Shown here piece by piece: positions 50,045 through 64,000 of a DNA stretch of 64,000 nt. Within the stretch, counting starts at the first letter, position 1, and each line of letters begins with the position of its first letter. The notes below the pieces were generated by a model that was not told the DNA's origin, did no database searches, and saw only the letters and a program-made list of their open reading frames with translations. Both the position numbers and the translations under genes were made by a program. Source of the DNA: Minisyncoccota bacterium (GTDB lineage: Bacteria > Patescibacteriota > Microgenomatia > UBA1400 > UBA12028); the NCBI GenBank assembly GCA_016211945.1, contig JACRHV010000003.1, positions 69,631 to 133,630 of the forward strand, written 5' to 3'.

Positions 50045-50695
50045 ATGTTCACTGCCCAATCATTCGCCGTTGTTGGAGCTATCCTCATAAGTTATATCTG
50101 GGTTCGCACTCCAGAACTTGCGCCATATTCACTTCAGCTTACCGCAGGCCTCGTCCTTGCGTACATCATGATGAAGCGTGTAGCAAAAACACATATCTTT
50201 CATATCGCTCCGTCATCTACTACAGCTGAGGTGGGTGTGTTTACTACCGCATTGTTTATGCTCATTGGGTATACAGGCGGCGTCACCTCAATATTCCTTC
50301 CACTGCTCTATCTCCTCCTCTTTATCGGCGTCCTCTCACTCCACACCACAACCATTATTCTCTTTGAGTTTTGCATTCCACTGTACTTGTGGGCACTCGG
50401 ACCGGTGCCAATGACACAACATCAACTCGCAACACTTCTTTCCTTCCCCATTCTTCTCCCCCTCTTGGTGTTTGCGCGTAAGCAATACACAACCGCACAA
50501 CAAGAGAAAAAAGTAGAGGAAAAACTCGCAGATCAAACATTCTCTGCCGCACTGTTTCTTTCAACATTTCTGAAACCAAAACTTCAGCATATTCTTGAAC
50601 TTTCTAACTATCCTGACCACAATAAACGAGGCATTCAGAAACAGCTTTCCCTAACGATAGAGGAACTCGACGATGTTCTCAAAGAAACAGAGTAA
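50045..50695 (+). CDS. hypothetical membrane protein
   Basis: About 6 TM N-terminal half, soluble C-terminal tail. Overlaps the start of the surface-protein cluster. Confidence 0.4.
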   Translation: MFTAQSFAVVGAILISYIWVRTPELAPYSLQLTAGLVLAYIMMKRVAKTHIFHIAPSSTTAEVGVFTTALFMLIGYTGGVTSIFLPLLYLLLFIGVLSLHTTTIILFEFCIPLYLWALGPVPMTQHQLATLLSFPILLPLLVFARKQYTTAQQEKKVEEKLADQTFSAALFLSTFLKPKLQHILELSNYPDHNKRGIQKQLSLTIEELDDVLKETE

Positions 50696-51425
50696 TCGAA
50701 CGGTGGTTGGTCGAGGGATCGGCATTGTACTCGGTCTCATCTTTTTTGTTTTCTTTCTCCCCAAGGCATCCGCAAACATGTCATCGAACAGTTTTATTAT
50801 TCAGTTCAACAATCTCAACATGACATCCGGATCAAAAACAAGTAGTTCGTATAAGGTGACCGATACTGTCGGCCAAAACGCACCGGGAAAGTACGGAACG
50901 ACGGGGTACATTGTGAAAGCGGGGTTCCAGTACATCTATACCATCGGTAATTTTTCATTTTCTATTTCAAATACGATGATTAATTTTGGATTGCTCACGC
51001 CAAACACCTTTGCCACCGGCACAACAACACTCACTGTTTCCGCAAAAGGCGCCGGAGGATATACCGTAACCACTTATGAAAACTACCCGCTCAAAAAAAT
51101 CGGAACCTCGGCGACAATCGCGGATACGACATGCAACGCGGGGACATGCACAGAGGGCACTGCCGGAGTATGGACCGACGCAACAAAACCAGGATTTGGA
51201 TACAACATGACCGGATCAGACATCCCTGCCGCCTTTGTCGACGCAACATACTTCAAGCAGTTTGCGAACTATTCGCAAAACGAGCCCCCGCAAACTATCA
51301 TGAGTAACGCCGGAGTTGTAAAAAATCGACAAGCGACGGTGACGTATAAAGTCGCGGTGTCCGGAAATCAAACGGCGGGAAACTACGAGAACAACATTAC
51401 ATACATTGCAACACCGGGATACTAG
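50673..51425 (+). CDS. secreted beta-rich surface protein (WxL-like domain candidate), paralogous to C-terminus of 52438..53871
   Basis: Signal peptide ...LPKASA. S/T/G-rich beta sequence. Shared C-terminal block YENYPLKKIGTSATIA...GFGYNMTG...SQNEPPQTI...GNYENNITYIATPGY, versus YELKKMGTSTTIA...GFGYGLNY...SNSEPAQTI...GDYENNITYTATATF in the larger paralog. Confidence 0.5.
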   Translation: MFSKKQSNRTVVGRGIGIVLGLIFFVFFLPKASANMSSNSFIIQFNNLNMTSGSKTSSSYKVTDTVGQNAPGKYGTTGYIVKAGFQYIYTIGNFSFSISNTMINFGLLTPNTFATGTTTLTVSAKGAGGYTVTTYENYPLKKIGTSATIADTTCNAGTCTEGTAGVWTDATKPGFGYNMTGSDIPAAFVDATYFKQFANYSQNEPPQTIMSNAGVVKNRQATVTYKVAVSGNQTAGNYENNITYIATPGY

Positions 51426-51428
51426 CGT

Positions 51429-52418
51429 ATGAAAAAAATAATGTTTTTTACCCTAGTCGTATCTATACTCCTTTTTCCAAAGTCTTTGTCTGCGCAAGAC
51501 CAACAAAAAACATCCCTTTCTATTTCACCACCGCTTTCCGAGATCGTGATTCAACCGGGGAAGTCGGTAACGCAGGCGTTTAACATCACCAATGAGGGGT
51601 CTGTTAATCTTGAGGTCATTCCAACGGTAGTCCCGTTTGCGCCGCATCCGGAAACTGGTGAGCCTGTTCTTTTGCTCAATTCCACACGGTTTCCCTTTGC
51701 GACACTGCAAAATCTGGATAAAGCATTAGATAAGCCGTTTCTTCTGAAAGCAAAGCAGTCCGACCAACTCGTGCTCCGCATCGCCATTCCTGAAAAAGAA
51801 AAAGAGAAAGATTATTACGTCACACTCCTTCTTCAGACAAAACCGTCAGGCCTCACACAACTCAACGAAACGGGTTCTATTTCACAAGCGTATCTTGGTG
51901 TCCATCTCCTTGTCTCGGTTTCAAAATCCGGTGAGGATAAAGGAAATCTCACAATACACCAGTTTAAGTCGGCAAAGTTCCTTGATACGTTCTCGGATAT
52001 CTCTCCAAAACTTTTCGTCAAGAACAACGGAACGACATTCACGAAAGCACACGGTGAAATCAAGATCATTTCGCTGACCGGAGAGATCATAAAACTGTTT
52101 CCCATTCTCCCGGAAAATGTGTTGTCCGGCGGAGTGCGCGAACTCCACACCTCGCTTCCAGATCCGGAGGACGCAAAAAGTGCTATACCCGCACCTTTCA
52201 CATACAAACCTCTATTTCTTCTTGGATCATACACCGTAACGGCACGCGTGTTTGCGGAAAACCAAATAGCGGAAGAGGTGACTATTCAAGTATTTGCGTT
52301 TCCGTTTTCTTTGGTAGCGTTTATTATTTCACTCTACTTTACGCGACATGTTATTGTGTCTGTGAGAGAAAAACGCGAAACGAAGGCGAAAGTTGTTGAC
52401 AGAATATCAAAAGAATGA
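51429..52418 (+). CDS. CscA/DUF916-like cell-surface protein with C-terminal TM anchor
   Basis: Signal peptide (MKKIMFFTLVVSILLFPKSLSA), beta-sandwich start SISPPLSEIVIQPGKSVTQAFNITNEG, C-terminal TM plus basic tail (LVAFIISLYFTRHVIVSVREKRETKAK). Confidence 0.5.
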   Translation: MKKIMFFTLVVSILLFPKSLSAQDQQKTSLSISPPLSEIVIQPGKSVTQAFNITNEGSVNLEVIPTVVPFAPHPETGEPVLLLNSTRFPFATLQNLDKALDKPFLLKAKQSDQLVLRIAIPEKEKEKDYYVTLLLQTKPSGLTQLNETGSISQAYLGVHLLVSVSKSGEDKGNLTIHQFKSAKFLDTFSDISPKLFVKNNGTTFTKAHGEIKIISLTGEIIKLFPILPENVLSGGVRELHTSLPDPEDAKSAIPAPFTYKPLFLLGSYTVTARVFAENQIAEEVTIQVFAFPFSLVAFIISLYFTRHVIVSVREKRETKAKVVDRISKE

Positions 52419-52437
52419 CCTAAATAGCGATGAACAT

Positions 52438-53871
52438 ATGAAAAACCGATGGGTGGTGAAGTTTTTTTTGCTTGCGTGCTTTGTCGTGTTTCTTGTGGTG
52501 CCCGCTCATCTTCAACAAACGCGTTCGGCAAACCTCACTTCCGTATCCGACACGCTTTCAAGCTCCCACCTCTCCTTCTATGGATTGATGGGATCCGGGA
52601 ATACCGTTGGTGAAACACTCATTCTCATCAACACCACAACCGCCCCCTCAACCAGCTCAAGCCAGCTCGCATCGCCATCTGCCGGAACGGTAAAGATCGG
52701 AAGTAATATTTATAACTTGAGTGGCACCATGCCAAATAATGATCAGAGTAAATTTAGTATCTCCAGTGGTCTAACCTCTGGTGATCAAACCGCGGGTAAT
52801 GCAATCATCGCAACACAGTCAGCCAGTCATACCGTTCGCTTCTCTACTGCAACCGCCGTTCCAAGTGGTTCGTTCCGCGTCCTCATTCAGGCAACAACAA
52901 ACTCAGGAAGTTCGAATGACGGTATTCCAGACGGTGACGGATTTGATTTTGGCGCATCTGCACCAACCGTAACCTGTCCAACCGACAACTCGTATTACGA
53001 CTTTGTGACAGGGACAGCAACGGCGCAGGCGGTCACGATAAACTCGGTAAAGTATCACGTGTTTGAGTGCCGCTACTCCGGAACAGGCCAGGCAAGCGCG
53101 AGCTTCGCCTCCAACCCTATTACTGTCACCTCACTCATCAACCCTGCGCCAAAAAGCGGCCATGCTGTTGGGACAAACGACGCCTACAACATCATCGTGC
53201 AGAACATGGACTACACCTACACCATGGTTGATCAAACCGCTCTGCAGGTTGGAGTCATCGAGTCTGTCCGTGTGTCCGCTACCGTAGCGCCGCAAATTAC
53301 CTTCCGTATTGCCGGTCTTCCCTCAGGAAATACCTCCGCCTGCGGGACCGCAACAGACGTGACCACAACCCCAACCACGGTTCCTTTTGGCCAAGTGTCC
53401 ATCACCGCGTTTATGCATGCGGGCCAGGCACTTGATGTTTCTACCAACGCTATTGGCGGGTATGCGGTAACAACACAGGCAAACTACGAACTGAAAAAAA
53501 TGGGAACTTCCACTACTATAGCAGGTGCGACTGGAAACGGTGGAAATGTGACCTACGGCGCAAAGGGGCGATGGGACTCCACAACGTATAAAGGGTTTGG
53601 GTATGGGTTGAACTACATCAGTGCAATTTCCGGATCAGGAACTGCGGCATTTGACTACGCAGATACCGATGGGAACTGTTCCGGCGGAACATTCTGTGCA
53701 AAACAATTCCCAGACCTTTCAAACAGCGAGCCCGCGCAAACCATCTTTTCATCCTCCACGGTTGCAGACACAGAGAACGTCAATGTGTGTTACAAGATCG
53801 TCATCAGCAATGTGCAGGCCGCCGGCGACTACGAAAATAACATTACCTATACCGCGACAGCGACGTTTTAA
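52438..53871 (+). CDS. large secreted beta-rich surface protein (WxL-like candidate)
   Basis: Signal peptide MKNRWVVKFFLLACFVVFLVVPAHL. Long S/T/G/N-rich region. C-terminal ~200 aa homologous to the 250-aa protein upstream. Confidence 0.5.
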   Translation: MKNRWVVKFFLLACFVVFLVVPAHLQQTRSANLTSVSDTLSSSHLSFYGLMGSGNTVGETLILINTTTAPSTSSSQLASPSAGTVKIGSNIYNLSGTMPNNDQSKFSISSGLTSGDQTAGNAIIATQSASHTVRFSTATAVPSGSFRVLIQATTNSGSSNDGIPDGDGFDFGASAPTVTCPTDNSYYDFVTGTATAQAVTINSVKYHVFECRYSGTGQASASFASNPITVTSLINPAPKSGHAVGTNDAYNIIVQNMDYTYTMVDQTALQVGVIESVRVSATVAPQITFRIAGLPSGNTSACGTATDVTTTPTTVPFGQVSITAFMHAGQALDVSTNAIGGYAVTTQANYELKKMGTSTTIAGATGNGGNVTYGAKGRWDSTTYKGFGYGLNYISAISGSGTAAFDYADTDGNCSGGTFCAKQFPDLSNSEPAQTIFSSSTVADTENVNVCYKIVISNVQAAGDYENNITYTATATF

Positions 53872-53882
53872 GGAGTTGTGAT

Positions 53883-54938
53883 ATGAAATGCCACCTGCCC
53901 CATTTTTTCCGCGTACTCGGTGCGTGTGTTGTGTTTGTCAGTCTTGCCGTGATTCCTGTTTTCGCGGTTCAATCGAGCACACCTGAAGAAATACTCGGAT
54001 CACTTGACTCGCTTGCCTTCACCGCAGTTCCCCCTCGAACCGAGGTTATCGAGGTAAAACCCGGAGACACCTATCAGACAAATATCAAGTTCCGCAATCT
54101 CACAAAACAGTCACAAGCAATCTCGACAGAAACGCTAGACTTTGTGATTGATAAGGACGGAAAGACGCCCATCCCTGTTACACAAACCGAGGCCGCTCCG
54201 CTCCGGTGGAGTCTCGCCTCGTGGATCACGGTTTCCCCTTCACAACGTGCCGTTACACCAAACGAACTCGCAACATATGACGTGGTGATCCAGGTGCCAA
54301 AGGACGCACTCCCCGGTGGACACTATGCAATGGTGGTTCACACGCCCGTTGCGATGAGTGCACTCCAGAACAAACCGCAGGAGAAAAATGCACAGTCCGC
54401 CTCTGCAGTCAATCCAAAGCTCGGAACACTCTTTTACGTAAAGGTCGCAGGAAACGTCCACGAGGAGGCCTTTATCCGATCCTTCATCGCTCCGTCATGG
54501 GTCGAGTTTGGACCGGTCAACTTTTCATATAGTGTCGAAAACTTGTCCGACGTCCATATCACTCCGCAGTCCTCGATTGTGGTCAAGGACATGATCGGTA
54601 GAACAGTGGACACGATTGTTGTTGAACCACTGAATATTTTTCCATATTCCACTCGAACGTTTACGGCGATGTTGGATAAGATTTGGGGAGTTGGCCCGTA
54701 CACTGCGCGCCTGTCCGTTCCGTACGGAACCGGAGGTAAGGTGCTCACCACAACGCTCGTGTTCTGGATGTTTCCGTACCGCATTGTGCTTGCAGTCCTC
54801 GTCATACTCATGACGCTTTTGGCGATTGTGATTGTGGTTCGCCGCCACTTGGAACACCGATACGACATGAAGGCAAAACAGATCGAGATACTCGAGGATC
54901 GTATTCGAGAACTGGAAAAGCGTTCGAGAGAACAGTAG
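53883..54938 (+). CDS. second CscA/DUF916-like surface protein with C-terminal TM anchor
   Basis: Signal peptide. TAVPPRTEVIEVKPGDTYQTNIKFRN parallels SISPPLSEIVIQPGKSVTQAFNITN of 51429..52418. C-terminal TM (IVLAVLVILMTLLAIVIVV) plus coiled-coil tail. Confidence 0.5.
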   Translation: MKCHLPHFFRVLGACVVFVSLAVIPVFAVQSSTPEEILGSLDSLAFTAVPPRTEVIEVKPGDTYQTNIKFRNLTKQSQAISTETLDFVIDKDGKTPIPVTQTEAAPLRWSLASWITVSPSQRAVTPNELATYDVVIQVPKDALPGGHYAMVVHTPVAMSALQNKPQEKNAQSASAVNPKLGTLFYVKVAGNVHEEAFIRSFIAPSWVEFGPVNFSYSVENLSDVHITPQSSIVVKDMIGRTVDTIVVEPLNIFPYSTRTFTAMLDKIWGVGPYTARLSVPYGTGGKVLTTTLVFWMFPYRIVLAVLVILMTLLAIVIVVRRHLEHRYDMKAKQIEILEDRIRELEKRSREQ

Positions 54939-56751: not shown

Positions 56752-57783
56752 ATGTTTACTCCTCAATATACAATCACCAATCACCTTCTCTCGAATATTA
56801 TCCGCATTCATGGTCTTGTCAAAGATCTTAACGATCGAAGATTTGCAAAAGTTGTGTTTGTGGAATTTGAAAAAATCGCACGTGAAGTCTCGTCTTATGC
56901 TTCAACCAGTATTGAAGGCAATCCCCTCTCACTTACAGAAGTCAAAAGAGTGTTGAAGTCAAAACCAGAACACATCCGAGATAGTGAAAAAGAAGTCCTG
57001 AATTACAATCAAGCACTTGAACACTTGAACCAATTACTTCAATCCGAAAAACTTGAACTCTCCCTCAAGCTTATCCTGAATATTCATAAACACATAACAA
57101 GAGGACTACTTCTTCGTGATGAATCCGGGAGACTGCGCAAAAATCATGTCGTGGTCCATGATCCAAGAACGGGTGAAATAGTCTACCTTCCTCCTGATGT
57201 AAATCAGGTACGCGGATTGGTGAACGACCTCATCGCTTTCGTTCAGAAAAATAGTAAGAAGATTGATCCCTTGATTCTTGCTGGTATTTTTCATAAACAC
57301 ATGGTGATTATCCATCCGTTCATGGACGGCAACGGCAGAACAACCAGACTTGTAACCAAGGTACTTTTAGCAAACATGGGATTGAACACCTTTAACCTCT
57401 TTAGTTTCGAGAATTATTACAACAAAAATGTTACAAAATACTTTCAAGCAGTTGGAGAATATGGGGACTATAATGAAGTAGCACATTCGATCAACTACAC
57501 GCTTTGGCTCGAGTATTTCACCGATGGGTTAATCGATGAATTGTTACGCGTACAAAAATTGTTACCAACATTTGGCAATACACCAGATACAACACTGGAA
57601 ATACATCATCGTAAAATGCTTGAATACATAAAACAGCATGGATTTATCCGTGATCGAGATTACGCGAAGCTCACCGAGAGGGCCAAGGCAACACGTACCA
57701 AAGACTTCCAAAAACTTCTGGACTTAGGACTCATTGAGCGTAAGGGGAAAGGAAGATCGGTCTATTACACTCAAAAAGTCTAA
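56752..57783 (+). CDS. Fic/Doc family protein (putative AMPylator)
   Basis: Canonical Fic motif HPFMDGNGRTTRL, with a helical N-domain and C-terminal winged-helix-like region. Confidence 0.8.
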   Translation: MFTPQYTITNHLLSNIIRIHGLVKDLNDRRFAKVVFVEFEKIAREVSSYASTSIEGNPLSLTEVKRVLKSKPEHIRDSEKEVLNYNQALEHLNQLLQSEKLELSLKLILNIHKHITRGLLLRDESGRLRKNHVVVHDPRTGEIVYLPPDVNQVRGLVNDLIAFVQKNSKKIDPLILAGIFHKHMVIIHPFMDGNGRTTRLVTKVLLANMGLNTFNLFSFENYYNKNVTKYFQAVGEYGDYNEVAHSINYTLWLEYFTDGLIDELLRVQKLLPTFGNTPDTTLEIHHRKMLEYIKQHGFIRDRDYAKLTERAKATRTKDFQKLLDLGLIERKGKGRSVYYTQKV

Positions 57784-57999: not shown

Positions 58000-58824
58000 T
58001 CAGTGTGATCGATCGAGTGAAAAGACGACAGTGGATAAACGGAGGTATTCCTGAACACATGCCACGTGGGGAAACTGCGCGCCTAACACCTGGGTTGGGA
58101 GGTCCGGATCTCGAGCAAGAAGGCTGAAAAGATCACTTGAAAGGCGAGAATATTGATGTTTTCGTCCGTCGTTCAATGCTTTTTCTTTCTGCACAACGCT
58201 TAGCAGACTTGTTGTTAATTTGCTAAGCTTCGTGTAGTCTTTGGCTCGTTCATCCAGATTCCACACCGAGCGACAGAACTCCCGTTCATCCCCAATGAGA
58301 AATCGTTTGGATTCAAGAAAAACAAAAAGGCCCATGACCTTTGCGCGCATAAGCTCGTTCTTTAACTTTTCGCCGATTGGATACGGCGAGATATAAACCG
58401 CACGCTCCAATGAGACAAATCCATGCGTTCTCAGGAGATTCCGAAGGGTCCTGTAGGCGTACAACGACTCCGGCGCATACCGAACATTTGAAAAAATGGC
58501 TAGGCGCCACGCGGCATCCCACTTTTTTTTCTTAAATACTGTTTCCGGCAAAGAAGAAAAGAGATGTTCTCTTCCGGCGGCGGTCATGCGGATAAAGATT
58601 TTTCCGGCTTGCTGGACAGTGACAACCAAACCCTGCTGCTGCATTGTGGAGACAGCACTGCGTATTGAGTTCGGGCTAAAATCGAAGAGCCTCCACTGAA
58701 GCTCTGGATAGGTGAGCAGACGTTGCGCCGCTGAGGAGAAAACGTCTGAAGGATGTTGAACCGATTCATTCTCTGGAATACTGAAAGCGAGCGAGAAAAG
58801 GAGATGCGATTTAAGATCGAGCAT
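58000..58824 (-). CDS. PaaX-family transcriptional regulator
   Basis: N-terminal wHTH-like segment and PaaX C-terminal-domain pattern KKWDAAWRLAIFSNV (W.G.W.LV.F signature). Confidence 0.5.
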   Translation of the reverse strand: MLDLKSHLLFSLAFSIPENESVQHPSDVFSSAAQRLLTYPELQWRLFDFSPNSIRSAVSTMQQQGLVVTVQQAGKIFIRMTAAGREHLFSSLPETVFKKKKWDAAWRLAIFSNVRYAPESLYAYRTLRNLLRTHGFVSLERAVYISPYPIGEKLKNELMRAKVMGLFVFLESKRFLIGDEREFCRSVWNLDERAKDYTKLSKLTTSLLSVVQKEKALNDGRKHQYSRLSSDLFSLLARDPDLPTQVLGAQFPHVACVQEYLRLSTVVFSLDRSH

Positions 58825-59320
58825 GAAACTATCATAGCAGATGGTGCGGAATGACCGGGAGAGTTCCGACCTAGTTCCGATTTCTTTTTCCTCTCTTTTC
58901 TATTTCCGCACCATTAATAATGGTTTTCACGATAAAATGATACTCCTTATCTTCGTCTTTCTTGCATTCGGTATTCCTTTTCTTCGTATTATTTTTCATT
59001 TCTCGGTAAAAATGTTGATAAATCTCAAGTGATTTTTTTCTGTTGTAAATACGTTAAACAAGAGACTAATATATTCATCAATTCACAGTATCAAAAATAT
59101 GGGGAAAAACGGCAAAAAACACAAAAAACATGATCTTCATCGTGCATATTCTGATATATTTGTATGCAAATGAAAAGAAATTGTGAAATATAACACTCTC
59201 ACCGTTTTTCTCTCTTCTGTAGTCTTGATATTCCCTCTTGACCTCAACCTCTGGTCGCGCCTACAGTGACGTTCATGCGCGGAAGCTTGATTGTCTAATC
59301 TCGTCTAACGCCAGAGGAAA

Positions 59321-62300
59321 ATGAGCAAAGAAGAATCTGTCCAAACCATCCAACGCTCAGAGGCATTGCTCCGGCAATTCGCCGATTTTTTGGCAGCACA
59401 ACAGCTCACTGAAAAGTCGATCCGCAACTATGTTTCAGATACACGCAAGTTTTTCGATTGGCTCGGGGGGCAAAAACCCAACGGTCAGGAAGATTGGGAC
59501 TGGATCGCTTCTATCCCCCAATCTGTTCGCGCATATCGCGCCTTTCTTCTTTCCCAGGCTGCACCTCTGGCCACCATTAACCGCCATCTCTCCTCTCTCC
59601 GCCAGTTTGGCGCTTTTTTAAACACCGTTCACCAGCTTCACCTCAAGTTGGATCACCTTCAAAACGTCTCTGTCCACGTCGAGCATGAGCAAGAAGTGTC
59701 GCATGTCCTCAACCACCAGGCTATTCACGCATTCGGTTTAGCACTTGAACATGAGCAGTGCTCACAGTCCACATGCGAAAATTACCTTGGTGATATCCGC
59801 CAATTTGCCGATTTTCTTGGAACAGAGTCGCTCTTTTCTGACCGAATAAAACCCCTTGCCGTGGAGTTTACGGGAAATTTGGCAAAAAATGGGGTCGCAG
59901 AAGCAACGATTCGACGCAAAATGGTGACCCTGAAGCGATTTTATGCGTGGGCAACCAAGTCTCACTACATCAAAACAAATGTTTTTGAATCATTCGGGGA
60001 GAAAGTCGGGCGAGTTGTTGGTGAGACTGCACAAAAATTTGTGCCGTTGGCGTTTTTTGAGAGAAATCGAGAAAACCAACAAAAAACCTCATCTTCCGAT
60101 GAGGTTTATGTCTGTGAAGAGTTACGTCTCCACGCGCTTGATAACCGTAACGAACAGTCTACCAGTCAAACAGGGATCTTGTCAAGACTGTGGCGGAGGG
60201 ATAGGGATTCGAACCCTAACCCCGCTCACGCGGAGTCACATCAGGTATCAACTGAGTTCCCAACCGTTGGGATTACCCCTCCAATTGGAATGTTTGGACC
60301 GACCACCACAGAATCGTCATACTCTCAAATTGCAGATGAAAAATCAACAACATCTTACTCTATCACCAACAAAAAACCCTCTGTTTCCAGAGGGTTTTTC
60401 AATGTAGAGTTTTCTCCCTACACAGTTGATACCTGTAACGTCAAGTCTACCAAACTTCCCCATCCCCTGTCAAGGCTCTACTCCGCCTACACCCGCTGGC
60501 CAGTGAGTTCCTATCTCCATCTTGCCGTTCTCGTTCTTTTTGTCTCGATGCTTGGGATTTTTGGCTATCAACAGTTTTTCCGTGATGCCGAGCAGAAGCT
60601 CGCTTTCCCCACCTCTCTCACCAGACCAAATCGCATTCTCTCCTTCCAGGGTCGCCTCACAGACACTGCCGGCACTCCACTCACTGTTGCAACCAACTTT
60701 ACCTTCAAACTGTATGACGCACTTACCAGTGGCAATCAGCTCTGGACATCTGGGACGTGTTCAATCACTCCGGATCAAGATGGCATCTTCTCTACTTTGC
60801 TTGGGAGTAGTTGCGGAAGCGAGATAGCCTCTGGTGTGTTTAGTGAAAATCAAAATGTATATCTCGAGGTAACAGTTGCGGCGGAGACGCTCACACCAAG
60901 ACAACAGATTGCCACGGTTGGATATGCGCTGAATGCCGAAACGCTCCAAGGCTACCCCGCTTCTGCGAGTGCGGTGGAAAATACGGTCCTTGTGATGAAC
61001 AACTCTGGTCAAGTGTTATTAGGCAACGCCTCGCCCACACTCCGTTCTACTTCTGGTACATTCGCGGTTCAGGGCAATGCGCTCAATGTGTCCACTAATA
61101 CCGGCACCGGAGGAAATATTACGCTTGCTCCGGATGGCGCTGGACAAGTGAGTTTGATTGGCGGCACCACAACACAGGATTTCATCGATATTACAAACGC
61201 GAACCTCACGACGGGAAAGTTGATGAAGGGGACGGTCGGAAATAACAATACTGGGTACAAATTTTTATCATTTGTTGGCGGCTCAACTCCCTCTGAAAAG
61301 TTCTATGTCAATGCCCTTGGAGGGGTGTATGCAGGCAACTCACTTTTTGCTCCAGTGGCGACCATTAGTGCAACGAATACGAGCGCTACACCGCTCATTA
61401 TCAACGGAACTGGAGGACAAATTTTCTCAATCGCAAATGGTGGGAACATTGTGGGTGCCGGAACCTTGACTGGATTAACAGGACTAACCTCGAGTGGAAC
61501 CATCACATTCTCAGGATTAAATACCGCAGGTGCGGTTGCGTATACACAGTCTGGTGGAGTTTTAGGAGTGACGGCACAGGGCGTGTCTGGGTACTTGTTA
61601 GGATCTGGTGGAGCTGGCACACCCACATGGATTGACCCCGCAACGGTTGGAAGCAACTATTGGCAGCTTACGAACAAGGTGATTTCGCCGGGAAACTCGA
61701 CGCATGACTTAGCGGTAGGAGGAAACGCGACAAGTTCTGCGTTGTTCCAGGTTTTTGGAAACACTGGGAATGCGACAACCGCAGGAACACTGACGTTTAA
61801 TGGGGCGGCATACTCGAATAACGTGATTGCGGCAACAAAGATGTCTGGGTTACAGATTGGAAATAGTAGCACGGGGAATATTATTTTTAATGGGGGGAAA
61901 ATAGGAGTTGGAACCGCAAACCCTCAAGGAACTCTTCATGTTGCTAGTAGTGCCAATATTGATGATCTTGTTGTTAATACCGAAGCCACAACGAATAACA
62001 TTGTTGATTCTAGTTTTGAGACTGGATTGGGGGGTTGGTACGCTACTTCAGTCAATGCCACTATTACACAATCAACTACTCAATCATATGTTGGTTCTAA
62101 AAGTTTAAAAAACGTAGCCACTGCAACAAATGAAGGCGCTTATATTACCATGTCTAGTGGATTTACTGCAGGAGTTTTAAATACTTTTTCTTCCTATGGA
62201 TATTTGGAATCAGGAACAGGTTGGCATTTGGTTTTCTTCTATTACGATGGCTCCTGGCATGCAGTTAACTCGCCTACAATAACTACTGTTGGCTCTTGGG

Positions 62301-64000
62301 TCAAGACAAGTGTTACTGTTAGTTTGCCTGCTGGAACAACCCAAATTCAACCGAGATTAGTAAGTGATGGTACGGCAACAATATATTTTGATGGCGTACA
62401 ATTAGAGGCAAAAGACCATGCCAGTCCTTATGCTGATGGTTCATTAGGATCTGGTTATAGTTGGACAGGAACTCCACATGCTTCAACTTCTATACGAAGA
62501 GCTGGGACAGTTTATGCTTATCAAGCAATTAACAGCGCTGGTGGAATAGGTGCCACTTCAGGAAGTTTATATCCAACATTACAAATTGATCAAGCTGGAA
62601 CAGGTGCTCTTTTTGTTGCCTCTGTTTCTGGAACACAAAAATTTATTATTGATAACACGGGCAATGTGGGGGTTGGGACGACAAATCCGTTGAATAAATT
62701 AAATGTTGTCGCGGACACTAACGTCTATACTAGTGCTCAATCTCTGGCCGGTTTAAGAGTTGATGATGGAACAAGTGATACGGCTTTATTATTAGGTGTA
62801 AACGCAGCTGGAGATGCGACTTACATTCAAGGTGTTCAACCACTAATATCTTGGACAAATCGTCCAATTTTATTACAGCCAAATGGTGGTAACGTCGGCA
62901 TCGGCAACACATCCCCTACCTACAAACTTGACGTCACCGGCTCTGCTTCGGTCTCTGCCAACCTCATGGCCGGTGGTCAAGTCCAACTCGGAAGATTCGG
63001 CGCAAATCCAACCGGCATTGGCGCGGGCGCGCTCTACTTCAACACCACAGACAGCAAGATTTACTACTACGACGGATCGAGTTGGTCACAAGTTGGATCG
63101 GGCGCAGGAGGAAACAATAGCCCATGGGATGAGTTAAACGGCACAATTGTCCCCAAAAACTCGACAGAAGATGTGTTGATTGGTGGTCAAGCAACAACCT
63201 CGGCAAAATTTGCGTTCTTAAATGTAAACACCGGCACACCGGTCGCAAGTTTCTCTGGAAACCTCACACTTACTCCTGCAACTTCTGCCATCATCCAAAC
63301 CACCAACATGATTCCATTGGTCATTGGCTCGGCATCAACCGGATCTATCCAGCTCTCGCCAAAAGCATCCACCGGCTTGTTCATCAACGGTTCTGGAAAC
63401 GTGGGCATCGGCAACACCGCACCAACGGTGGCACTCGACGTGACCGGCCAAGGCAAGTTCTCGTCGCTCGTTACCGCATCAAACGCACTCACTGTGACCA
63501 CCGGCCTTACGCAAGCGCTTGGTGGTCTCACGGTCTCCGGCAACAGCGTGGCGGCATCAGGACAAAACTTTGAGGCGTTTGTCACCTCTGGAACAGCGTA
63601 TGTTCAAGGGTATGATCGAGGCGGATCGGCATACATCCCACTCAACATTGCCGGTTCATACACCAAGTTCTCCAACGGAAGCGTTGGGATTGGTACCTCT
63701 GGTGCACCGGCAGAAAAACTCGAGATCAATGCTGGTGCGGCCGCAGGAGGGATTCGATTAAACGCAGATACCGGTGTTGATACGCGTTTGGTGTTCTATG
63801 AAAATGCCGTCTTAAAGGCAGGCCTCACCTACACCACAAGCGACGCAACCTTCCGCCTCTCCAATGCTGGAAGCGATATTGTGACACTCACGAGCGCGGG
63901 AAAAGTCGGCGTTGGAAACACCGCACCAGACGGTAAATTCCAAGTCACGGGTGCGGCAGTTGGAAAAGCGCTCGCCATCTTGAACGAAACTGGCGACCAA
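59321..64000 (+). CDS. giant open reading frame, 3'-truncated by the window end. Contents: N-terminal tandem integrase core-binding (SAM-like) domains; an embedded antisense tRNA-like element; a TM helix; tail-fibre/beta-helix-like repeats with a CBM4/9-like module
   Basis: Checked codon by codon: ATG at 59321 (RBS CCAGAGGAAA; in-frame TAA at 59306) to 64000 with no stop (1560 codons). The ORF track does not list it, consistent with omitting ORFs that lack a stop. Alternative model: a decayed integrase-N-terminal ORF plus a separate giant gene starting at ATG 60290 just past the tRNA-like element. TM helix VSSYLHLAVLVLFVSMLGIFGY at ~60500..60570. Confidence 0.6.
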   Translation, partial: MSKEESVQTIQRSEALLRQFADFLAAQQLTEKSIRNYVSDTRKFFDWLGGQKPNGQEDWDWIASIPQSVRAYRAFLLSQAAPLATINRHLSSLRQFGAFLNTVHQLHLKLDHLQNVSVHVEHEQEVSHVLNHQAIHAFGLALEHEQCSQSTCENYLGDIRQFADFLGTESLFSDRIKPLAVEFTGNLAKNGVAEATIRRKMVTLKRFYAWATKSHYIKTNVFESFGEKVGRVVGETAQKFVPLAFFERNRENQQKTSSSDEVYVCEELRLHALDNRNEQSTSQTGILSRLWRRDRDSNPNPAHAESHQVSTEFPTVGITPPIGMFGPTTTESSYSQIADEKSTTSYSITNKKPSVSRGFFNVEFSPYTVDTCNVKSTKLPHPLSRLYSAYTRWPVSSYLHLAVLVLFVSMLGIFGYQQFFRDAEQKLAFPTSLTRPNRILSFQGRLTDTAGTPLTVATNFTFKLYDALTSGNQLWTSGTCSITPDQDGIFSTLLGSSCGSEIASGVFSENQNVYLEVTVAAETLTPRQQIATVGYALNAETLQGYPASASAVENTVLVMNNSGQVLLGNASPTLRSTSGTFAVQGNALNVSTNTGTGGNITLAPDGAGQVSLIGGTTTQDFIDITNANLTTGKLMKGTVGNNNTGYKFLSFVGGSTPSEKFYVNALGGVYAGNSLFAPVATISATNTSATPLIINGTGGQIFSIANGGNIVGAGTLTGLTGLTSSGTITFSGLNTAGAVAYTQSGGVLGVTAQGVSGYLLGSGGAGTPTWIDPATVGSNYWQLTNKVISPGNSTHDLAVGGNATSSALFQVFGNTGNATTAGTLTFNGAAYSNNVIAATKMSGLQIGNSSTGNIIFNGGKIGVGTANPQGTLHVASSANIDDLVVNTEATTNNIVDSSFETGLGGWYATSVNATITQSTTQSYVGSKSLKNVATATNEGAYITMSSGFTAGVLNTFSSYGYLESGTGWHLVFFYYDGSWHAVNSPTITTVGSWVKTSVTVSLPAGTTQIQPRLVSDGTATIYFDGVQLEAKDHASPYADGSLGSGYSWTGTPHASTSIRRAGTVYAYQAINSAGGIGATSGSLYPTLQIDQAGTGALFVASVSGTQKFIIDNTGNVGVGTTNPLNKLNVVADTNVYTSAQSLAGLRVDDGTSDTALLLGVNAAGDATYIQGVQPLISWTNRPILLQPNGGNVGIGNTSPTYKLDVTGSASVSANLMAGGQVQLGRFGANPTGIGAGALYFNTTDSKIYYYDGSSWSQVGSGAGGNNSPWDELNGTIVPKNSTEDVLIGGQATTSAKFAFLNVNTGTPVASFSGNLTLTPATSAIIQTTNMIPLVIGSASTGSIQLSPKASTGLFINGSGNVGIGNTAPTVALDVTGQGKFSSLVTASNALTVTTGLTQALGGLTVSGNSVAASGQNFEAFVTSGTAYVQGYDRGGSAYIPLNIAGSYTKFSNGSVGIGTSGAPAEKLEINAGAAAGGIRLNADTGVDTRLVFYENAVLKAGLTYTTSDATFRLSNAGSDIVTLTSAGKVGVGNTAPDGKFQVTGAAVGKALAILNETGDQ
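60191..60282 (-). tRNA. tRNA-like element (type-II-like, CCA encoded) with anomalous anticodon arm, embedded antisense in the giant ORF
   Basis: Perfect T-arm TAGGG-TTCGAAT-CCCTA. 7-bp acceptor GGAGGGG/TCCCTCC (one G-U) plus G-CCA. D-arm TCCC-AACGGTT-GGGA. 7-bp extra-arm hairpin ACTCCGC-GTGA-GCGGGGT. The only foldable anticodon arm reads loop TTGATAC (GAT, Ile-like) with a C-U mismatch, which is abnormal for a long-variable-arm tRNA. Confidence 0.5.
61895..63952 (+). repeat. recurrent tail-fibre-like motif G-(N/K)-(V/I)-G-(V/I)-G-(T/N)-(T/A)-x-P-x-x-(K/A/T)-L-x-V-x-G in the giant ORF
   Basis: Copies at 61895..61950 (GKIGVGTANPQGTLHVAS), 62660..62707 (GNVGVGTTNPLNKLNV), 62888..62941 (GNVGIGNTSPTYKLDVTG), 63395..63449 (GNVGIGNTAPTVALDVTG), 63899..63952 (GKVGVGNTAPDGKFQVTG). 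Confidence 0.6.

Follow-up and report, generated by a model that had tools for sequence, protein, structure and literature searches.

A divergent CBM_4_9-type module, probably serving glycan-binding adhesion, in a predicted membrane-anchored giant fibre protein of a Candidatus Pacebacteria bacterium

What might a carbohydrate-binding module (CBM) be doing inside a patescibacterial protein that resembles a phage tail fibre? The question is raised by a 64,000-nucleotide stretch of DNA (hereafter, the window; contig JACRHV010000003.1 of assembly GCA_016211945.1, positions 69,631 to 133,630 of the forward strand), at the end of which lies the gene for a giant fibre-like protein. An earlier note on this DNA had placed a CBM4/9-like module at 62004-62417, embedded in a tail-fibre-like repeat region, and had suggested polysaccharide-directed adhesion, possibly to a host cell if the organism were epibiotic or had a small genome. 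The source record belongs to Candidatus Pacebacteria, a Patescibacteria lineage, in agreement with that guess at the organism. Here, the module is identified as a divergent CBM_4_9 (CenC-like; CBM4/16/22-type) beta-sandwich, an assignment that is supported because homology, profile, model and Foldseek results agree. We consider it probable that the module is a cassette in an anchored Pacebacteria fibre and acts as a glycan-binding adhesion knob.

The peptide running from VDSSFETG to FDGVQLE is encoded at 62003-62407 on the forward strand, in the frame of base 58802 (window translation), and occupies positions 899-1033 of the open frame (0-based slice 898-1033), so that the earlier placement at codons ~890-1040 of the open reading frame (ORF) was right. 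The nucleotide coordinates given with it pointed to a real peptide but began one base out of frame and ended 10 bases too late; because of the frame error, a literal translation of 62004-62417 yields stops. The fibre frame was missing from the ORF list because the list skips ORFs truncated at the end of the source. The module searches used a 175-residue stretch encoded at 61943-62467, and residue numbers such as F25, W119 and E155 count within it. The beta-sandwich core spans approximately 61982-62407 (+), from EATTNNIVDSSFETGLGGW to IYFDGVQLE, with limits drawn from the model and conservation. It is followed by a conserved trailing motif, AKDHASPYADGSLGSGYSWT (62408-62467, +), for which the subfamily consensus is K-x-YAT-x-YCDGSLGxGYxW. 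The G+C content of the window ranges from 0.38 to 0.50, and the module site shows no compositional break.

A word-indexed homologue search with the domain alone returned 0 matches. An exhaustive HMMER search (phmmer) of 1.84 billion representative proteins found 646 proteins at E ≤ 1e-3, 76 of them at E ≤ 1e-10, with the best E-values reaching 1e-30. Among the matches listed, nearly all span almost the whole stretch at 27-44% identity, and many of these relatives carry several tandem copies of the module (up to 15 by jackhmmer). The window stretch and the 63 best copies were combined into an alignment of 64 members (A1), in which members are 26-38% identical to the window sequence and 52 match the Pfam family CBM_4_9 (PF02018), with a best E-value of 8.7e-14; the family's cut-off of 25.9 bits is exceeded by full-length relatives, which reach 30.7-137 bits. 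When compared with solved structures, the A1 profile matched CBM22, CBM4 and CBM16 chains at E-values between 5e-12 and 4.5e-7, including CBM22 structure 4xup (5e-12; also 2w5f and 1dyo), CBM4 structure 1gui (8.7e-9; also 1k42) and CBM16 structure 2zew (1.9e-7). It also found the porphyran-binding CBM 8xmz and the RcGTA head spike fibre 6tb9 (2.3e-5). The window sequence by itself, searched against the PDB with phmmer, matched the first CBM22 of Clostridium thermocellum Xyn10B (CBM22-1) over residues 19-160 (E = 0.004), and in PHROGs it weakly matched the minor tail protein family phrog_14138 over residues 13-157 (E = 1.9e-5).

Structure prediction gave the same answer. An AlphaFold (AF2) model computed from the single sequence reached a predicted local distance difference test (pLDDT) score of 42; repeated with the 64-sequence alignment, the model reached a pLDDT of 91.8 and a predicted template modelling (TM) score (pTM) of 0.86. 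It shows an eight-strand all-beta domain at residues ~14-155. The top Foldseek matches in the PDB were CBM22, CBM16 and CBM4 domains, at probability 1.0 and target TM scores of 0.72-0.80, and most single-domain matches superposed with a root-mean-square deviation of 2.2-3.6 Å over ~150 columns; Cry toxin domains and a virus turret were also among these fold matches. Among viral models, the top match came from Arthrobacter phage Molivia, a minor tail protein with 29% identity and a TM score of 0.79, followed by many tail proteins named "CBM-cenC" or "CenC-like". Likewise, tblastn against isolated phages recovered Molivia gp23 (33% identity, E = 1e-8) and one Thermoanaerobacterium phage. The CBM4/9-like assignment in the earlier note is thus borne out by the 52 relatives that match PF02018, by the profile matches to CBM22, CBM4 and CBM16 and by the all-beta sandwich of the model, and neither the absence of a CBM or jelly-roll match nor a fold other than a beta-sandwich was encountered. 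The opposite reading, that a loose motif is mimicked here by chance where no domain exists, could appeal to the looseness of the sequence pattern first used and to the silence of Pfam on the sequence itself. It is refuted by the 646 relatives, the profile matches, the high-confidence model and the concordant sequence and fold matches, and we give it practically no weight.

Within the fold group, the best solved match by both profile (5e-12) and Foldseek (E ~6e-9, target TM score 0.75) is the CBM22 of family 10 glycoside hydrolase (GH10) xylanases, represented by C. thermocellum Xyn10B/XynY (2w5f, 2wys, 1dyo) and Paenibacillus barcinonensis Xyn10C (4xup, 4xuo). These modules share with the window module the beta-sandwich fold, the N-terminal F-E-x-x-x-G-W strand and the C-terminal h-D-x-V-Q-h-E strand. 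In contrast to CBM22, however, the window module has no attached enzyme, carries the additional trailing Y-x-DGSLGxGYxW and sits in a fibre rather than in a plant-cell-wall-degrading protein, and the identity between the two is 20-22%. CBM16 (Caldanaerobius polysaccharolyticus ManA; 2zew, 2zex, 3oea) and CBM4 (Thermotoga maritima Lam16A, 1gui; Rhodothermus marinus Xyn10A CBM4-2, 1k42 and 2y64) share the PF02018 family and the fold, with profile E-values of 1e-7 to 1e-9 and target TM scores of up to 0.80. At 13-17% identity, though, their ligands (beta-glucans, mannan, xylan) are not transferable to the module. As the A1 profile scores for CBM22, CBM4 and CBM16 overlap, the module was placed in no single CAZy family.

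The closest subfamily comprises the CenC-like CBMs of phages (phrog_14138, Molivia gp23 and Thermoanaerobacterium phage THSA-485A) together with the RcGTA head spike fibre 6tb9. Phage modules are 28-33% identical to the window module over its whole length, provide its best structural match (TM score 0.79), carry the same trailing motif and often lie beside a LamG domain. They differ in being virion proteins, whereas the window module belongs to a cellular, transmembrane-anchored protein with presumably cytoplasmic SAM-like domains, and the single copy in the window contrasts with the up to 15 tandem copies of some relatives. Of the 26 positions conserved in at least 80% of the subfamily, 22 are retained in the window sequence. 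These include the N-terminal T-T-N...S-F-E...G-W, G51, T81, W119 and the D150-x-x-Q-x-E strand, as well as Y163, D165, G166, S167, L168, G169, G171 and W174 of the trailing motif (Y-x-DGSLGxGYxW). The signature of the terminal strands is present as F25, E26, W32, D150, Q153 and E155, each at least 92% conserved in the subfamily; in related CBMs, the residues of this signature (F-E...G-W and h-D-x-V-x-h-E) hold the structural metal site. Between the conserved terminal strands, the sheets and loops hold the positions that vary within the subfamily. Model confidence is low for the last 20 residues of the stretch, and for this reason the trailing motif probably either links to the next element or begins it.

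The last strand and the trailing motif (residues ~146-175, from IYFDGVQLE to YADGSLGSGYSWT) were also found at 57-80% identity in giant proteins in which the remainder of the module is weak or partial. Loci with the trailing motif and a weak module were L013, L015, L017, L019, L022, L024, L028, L029, L032 and L036. The trailing motif thus appears to be conserved independently.

The protein that carries the module is encoded by one open frame that starts at ATG 59321 and runs off the window at position 64000 (+); the last upstream stop lies at 59306-59308, and the frame is open from 59309. The corresponding NCBI record, MBI5151099.1 ([quoted passage not shown]), has 2491 residues, starts at ATG 60290 and would end ~3.8 kb past the window on the 137-kb source contig; the part downstream of the window was read from this protein sequence. 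The only Pfam domain in it is a C-terminal Laminin_G_3 (residues 2270-2415). Upstream of the NCBI start, the 290 codons from ATG 59321 encode tandem integrase-type SAM-like domains (59321-60190, +; PF02899, 7.7e-20; PF13495, 5.6e-12; PF13102, 4.8e-10), which lack the catalytic integrase domain and are presumed to be cytoplasmic. A single hydrophobic helix, VSSYLHLAVLVLFVSMLGIFGY (60503-60568, +), read from the sequence and conserved in homologue alignments, is the predicted membrane anchor of the fibre. From the order of the SAM-like domains, the single transmembrane helix and everything that follows it, the module is likely to be extracellular, ~500 residues away from the membrane. The shaft weakly matches the tail fibre family phrog_9942 (E = 2.5e-5), so that the description of the region as tail-fibre-like holds, both on this and the minor-tail match of the module and on the Peptidase_S74 and collagen domains of fibre homologues.

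With the in-window protein as query, 139 fibre homologues were found, and statements on homologues cover the best 120 of these. For the most part they are from Patescibacteria, among them Woese-, Collier-, Shapiro- and Roizmanbacteria. Most have the N-terminal SAM-like domains fused in one ORF, all have the conserved transmembrane helix (consensus YLHLAILVLF..., within the signature Y-x-x-Y...YLHLAILVLF...AFP), and 114 of the 120 cover the first extracellular region (residues 420-590). Their distal parts vary and include Peptidase_S74, collagen triple helix, C1q, Hint and LamG domains. In phages, Peptidase_S74 acts as an intramolecular chaperone for trimeric fibres and spikes; since it occurs in homologues together with collagen, the shaft is likely to be trimeric. 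The window protein shows the SAM-like domains, the transmembrane signature and the conserved extracellular region of what is an unnamed Microgenomates SAM-transmembrane-fibre family, whose members are often annotated publicly as "site-specific integrase, partial" on account of the SAM-like N terminus. Literature searches did not find a description of this family, and as far as these searches show, the architecture is conserved and undescribed.

What the module does can be approached through its fold group. Carbohydrate binding would be expected by analogy with the members of this group, phage and gene transfer agent (GTA) examples included, and we infer that glycan-directed adhesion is its most likely function. 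The complete fibre would comprise 2500-2800 residues, with cytoplasmic SAM-like domains, the transmembrane helix, a repeat shaft, the module, further shaft and a C-terminal LamG domain. The module and the LamG end may act as a lectin knob that binds a polysaccharide on the envelope or in the matrix of a partner (host) cell, and such binding would let the small cell adhere. Candidate aromatic and polar residues of a binding face lie within WHLVFFYYDGSWH and SSYGYLESG. The adhesion reading agrees with patescibacterial genetics and with epibiont inventories: a cultivated patescibacterium depends for its epibiotic growth on envelope proteins that carry glycan-binding domains and that have been proposed to target host glycans (PMC10633639), and large membrane proteins with adhesion domains have been inventoried in another epibiont (PMC13059738). 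The same role in host-surface contact was proposed for SEML1_0891 (VCBS), SEML1_0315 (dockerin) and SEML1_0890 (fibronectin type III, FnIII) of Southlakia epibionticum (PMC10633639). These proteins differ from the window protein in their domain types and in belonging to Saccharibacteria rather than to Microgenomates-type Pacebacteria. Glycan-binding adhesins are already established in Patescibacteria, and the module would add a divergent member to this known kind.

Several observations weigh against adhesion through a bound glycan. A Pfam scan at E ≤ 10 returned no CBM_4_9 match for either the 175-residue stretch or the 1165-residue in-window protein; no window sequence reached the PF02018 gathering threshold (25.9 bits), and there was no match to this family at E ≤ 0.01 either. 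The Pfam scan that the earlier note proposed has succeeded with the relatives of the module and failed with the window sequence itself. The sole Pfam trace in the stretch was Mann_GBD_bact (PF21253) at E = 0.064. Identity to characterised CBMs in the Foldseek comparison with the PDB is 13-22%, and a direct alignment with Xyn10B CBM22-1 shows that the loop regions differ. Within the subfamily, variation is greatest at the positions that would make up the binding face. Finally, surface exposure and the trimeric state follow from the logic of the topology and from the domains of homologues rather than from domains of the protein itself.

These points would fit a module that has the CBM fold but is no lectin, namely one that serves the fibre as a spacer or structural knob, or that binds proteins, and is kept for the geometry of the shaft or for a proteinaceous receptor. 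The lack of a direct Pfam match is one argument for it, and another is that only core and structural positions, along with the trailing linker, are conserved in the subfamily, while the putative binding face is not. Furthermore, jelly-rolls of this superfamily also serve purely structural purposes in virion proteins, in line with the Cry toxin domain and virus turret fold matches. However, most characterised members of the fold group bind saccharides, including the phage and GTA examples matched here. A variable presumed binding face is typical of receptor-binding modules, and the carrier ends in another lectin-type domain, LamG. Overall, we regard a non-lectin role as rather unlikely and retain glycan-directed adhesion as the preferred explanation.

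Classical CBM4, CBM16 and CBM22 modules are appended to glycoside hydrolases, which raises the alternative that the module is an accessory to a polysaccharide-degrading activity that went undetected in the giant protein, with glycan degradation rather than adhesion as its purpose. Most of the 2491 residues are without a family assignment, and the authors of the 2023 study in Cell left adhesion versus degradation open for their proteins (PMC10633639). However, Laminin_G_3 is all that Pfam yields in the whole protein, and no Pfam family was matched in the 1165 in-window residues. The shaft consists of tail-fibre-like repeats, and the module has its relatives among tail proteins rather than enzymes. 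A degradative role is accordingly considered quite unlikely.

If the module does bind a glycan of a host envelope, its ~170 residues would offer an expressible handle for finding partners of uncultivated Pacebacteria and for testing attachment. Standard Pfam annotation misses this module subfamily, and the public record of the protein names LamG alone.

The subfamily to which the module belongs is found in phage tail and receptor-binding proteins and, in Patescibacteria and Chloroflexota, in giant proteins with several lectin domains. Phage tail proteins (phrog_14138, Tail_P2_I, Dit) make up most of the top metagenomic relatives, and in many of them a LamG domain adjoins the CBM. A locus scan with two peptide patterns and tblastn (an 11-sequence subset, one genome per species) gave 73 loci with the subfamily, a sample biased by the two patterns and drawn in part from metagenome-assembled genome (MAG) bins that can include phage contigs. 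Patescibacteria account for 24 of them (Gottesman-, Levyi-, Roizman-, Shapiro-, Dojka-, Wirth- and Saccharibacteria and WWE3); the remainder are from Chloroflexota (22), gammaproteobacterial MAGs (10), archaea (3), Actinomycetota (3) and others. Many of the patescibacterial matches sit in open frames of 2000-3000 codons, and other carriers of the module are giant proteins with multiple lectin domains, including as many as eight LamG domains. The ~150 residues that follow the CBM are common to the window protein and to giant proteins of Gottesmanbacteria (L003, in the order collagen, CBM, post-CBM region, Hint), Levyibacteriota (L005) and locus L009, and the Levyibacteriota protein also shares the anchor-proximal region.

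Within the fibre, the module appears as part of a larger unit. A BLAST comparison with the closest ortholog compared (P0001) aligned query pieces 113-828 and 1207-1559, which abut in P0001, leaving ~378 extra residues in the window protein. This cassette (approximately 61805-62938, +), absent from P0001, comprises a lead-in, the CBM module, the trailing motif and ~150 residues of fibre-like sequence. Homologue coverage falls from dozens to 3-4 over residues 880-1080 of the open frame, and the module was absent from all 120 best fibre homologues by phmmer, by BLAST and by the A1 profile run unfiltered (--max; best E 0.77). Copies of a fibre repeat motif stand on either side of the module, directly upstream of it (GGKIGVGTANPQGTLHV, 61895-61954, +) and at the right edge of the cassette (GGNVGIGNTSPTYKLDV, 62888-62938, +). 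The motif reads GG(K/N)(I/V)G(V/I)G...P...L.V; these two copies lie at residues 859 and 1190, and more copies come after the second. The picture suggested by these alignments is one in which the module arrived as an in-frame cassette between shaft repeats.

Internal duplication was rejected as the source of the cassette, as only short repeat motifs recur in the protein. Further CBM copies were also ruled out: jackhmmer on the carrier protein (P0121) gave one significant module match, at residues 552-726, and the profile gave none in the 120 fibre homologues. The patchy distribution of the cassette shows that patescibacterial fibres and phage tails draw on the same pool of receptor-binding modules. 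Such a pool, common to phage tail proteins and giant surface proteins, is relevant to the evolution of host range in both Patescibacteria and phages.

As the module is most closely related to phage tail proteins, the fibre could also be a tail-fibre gene of a prophage or tailocin, with the module as the receptor-binding part of a virion. The integrase-like domains at the 5' end, together with a tRNA located there, superficially resemble the border of a genomic island. However, the "integrase" consists of SAM-like domains only, fused in frame to the fibre through a conserved transmembrane helix in most of the 120 homologues, across Microgenomates. The neighbourhood of the fibre is cellular, with genes for leucyl-tRNA synthetase (LeuRS), ComEC, a Big_13 protein, a Fic protein and a PaaX-like protein, and the 14 kb upstream contain no capsid, terminase or tail genes. 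The order Big_13, PaaX-like, fibre recurs in L001, the locus that is orthologous in the closest homologue, and the tRNA is a lineage-specific insertion rather than an attachment site common to the ortholog. Prophage origin is rejected on the cellular neighbourhood and the synteny with L001, and we regard it as very improbable; the gene is a cellular one, and its product is a giant protein anchored at the N terminus and similar to a tail fibre.

The tRNA lies in a part of the fibre gene that is itself unusual. Relative to orthologs P0001-P0003 and locus L001, the cytoplasmic linker between the SAM-like domains and the transmembrane helix contains an in-frame insertion of ~140 codons (~60050-60480). 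The 173 codons that span it (59978-60496) are free of stops, which has a probability of ~1.5e-4 by shuffling, while the other forward frames contain 1 and 14 stops. Antisense to the fibre frame within this insertion, ARAGORN identified a 92-nt tRNA-Ile(GAU) at 60191-60282 (-; Rfam, 37.8 bits), with an 18-nt variable arm, an encoded CCA and an anticodon loop with GAU (Ile). The body of the tRNA, however, is of Ser type. Its exact 23-nt 3' end recurs at 80 metagenome loci, where ARAGORN called 70 tRNAs, every one of them a tRNA-Ser (UGA, GGA, CGA); the best identity of the nested tRNA, 78%, is likewise to a tRNA-Ser(UGA). Pattern scans of GTDB representative genomes found no class-II GAU tRNA. 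From these comparisons, the nested tRNA may be a tRNA-Ser that has decayed, or else one of Ser type that decodes Ile codons. A side observation concerns the Collierbacteria homologue P0034 (locus L002), of which the N terminus reads YRDSNPSRPG, the type of peptide that translation of an antisense tRNA T-arm gives; ARAGORN found no tRNA in locus L002, the translation of which is not identical to the query P0034.

Two paralogous units of ~115 nt, 72% identical to each other, flank the tRNA on the same strand (60075-60189 and 60365-60477, -). Each consists of TTGACA, 15 nt and TGgTAGACT (a 10/12 promoter match), ~50 nt with a hairpin, a terminator hairpin and then TTTTTTGTTGGT. The terminator stems of the two units differ entirely, yet both pair (CCTCATC/GATGAGG versus CCCTCTG/CAGAGGG). 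In unit B, 16 nt are 94% complementary to the anticodon arm of the tRNA. No further copies of the units were found in the window, and the promoter-unit motif was not found in metagenome contigs.

A more far-reaching reading of the carrier family is that it forms a transmembrane contact device peculiar to Microgenomates-type Patescibacteria that would couple the binding of host glycans to the binding of DNA by the SAM-like domains, through ToxR-like signalling or DNA tethering at the attachment site. Its tail-fibre-like shaft would bear exchangeable lectin cassettes (this CBM, LamG, C1q, collagen, S74-chaperoned tips), and in this genome the linker would in addition host the antisense Ser-type tRNA with its own promoter- and terminator-like elements. 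We offer this as a doubtful proposal.

Two further features were observed in the neighbourhood of the fibre gene. Upstream of the Big_13 gene, five consecutive ORFs on the forward strand (50045-54938) encode proteins of 216, 250, 329, 492 and 351 residues, none of which had a Pfam match at E ≤ 1e-4. Between the Big_13 and PaaX-like genes lies the gene of the Fic/DOC family (56752-57783, +); as L001 has just ~260 nt at this position, it is a lineage-specific insertion beside the fibre gene.

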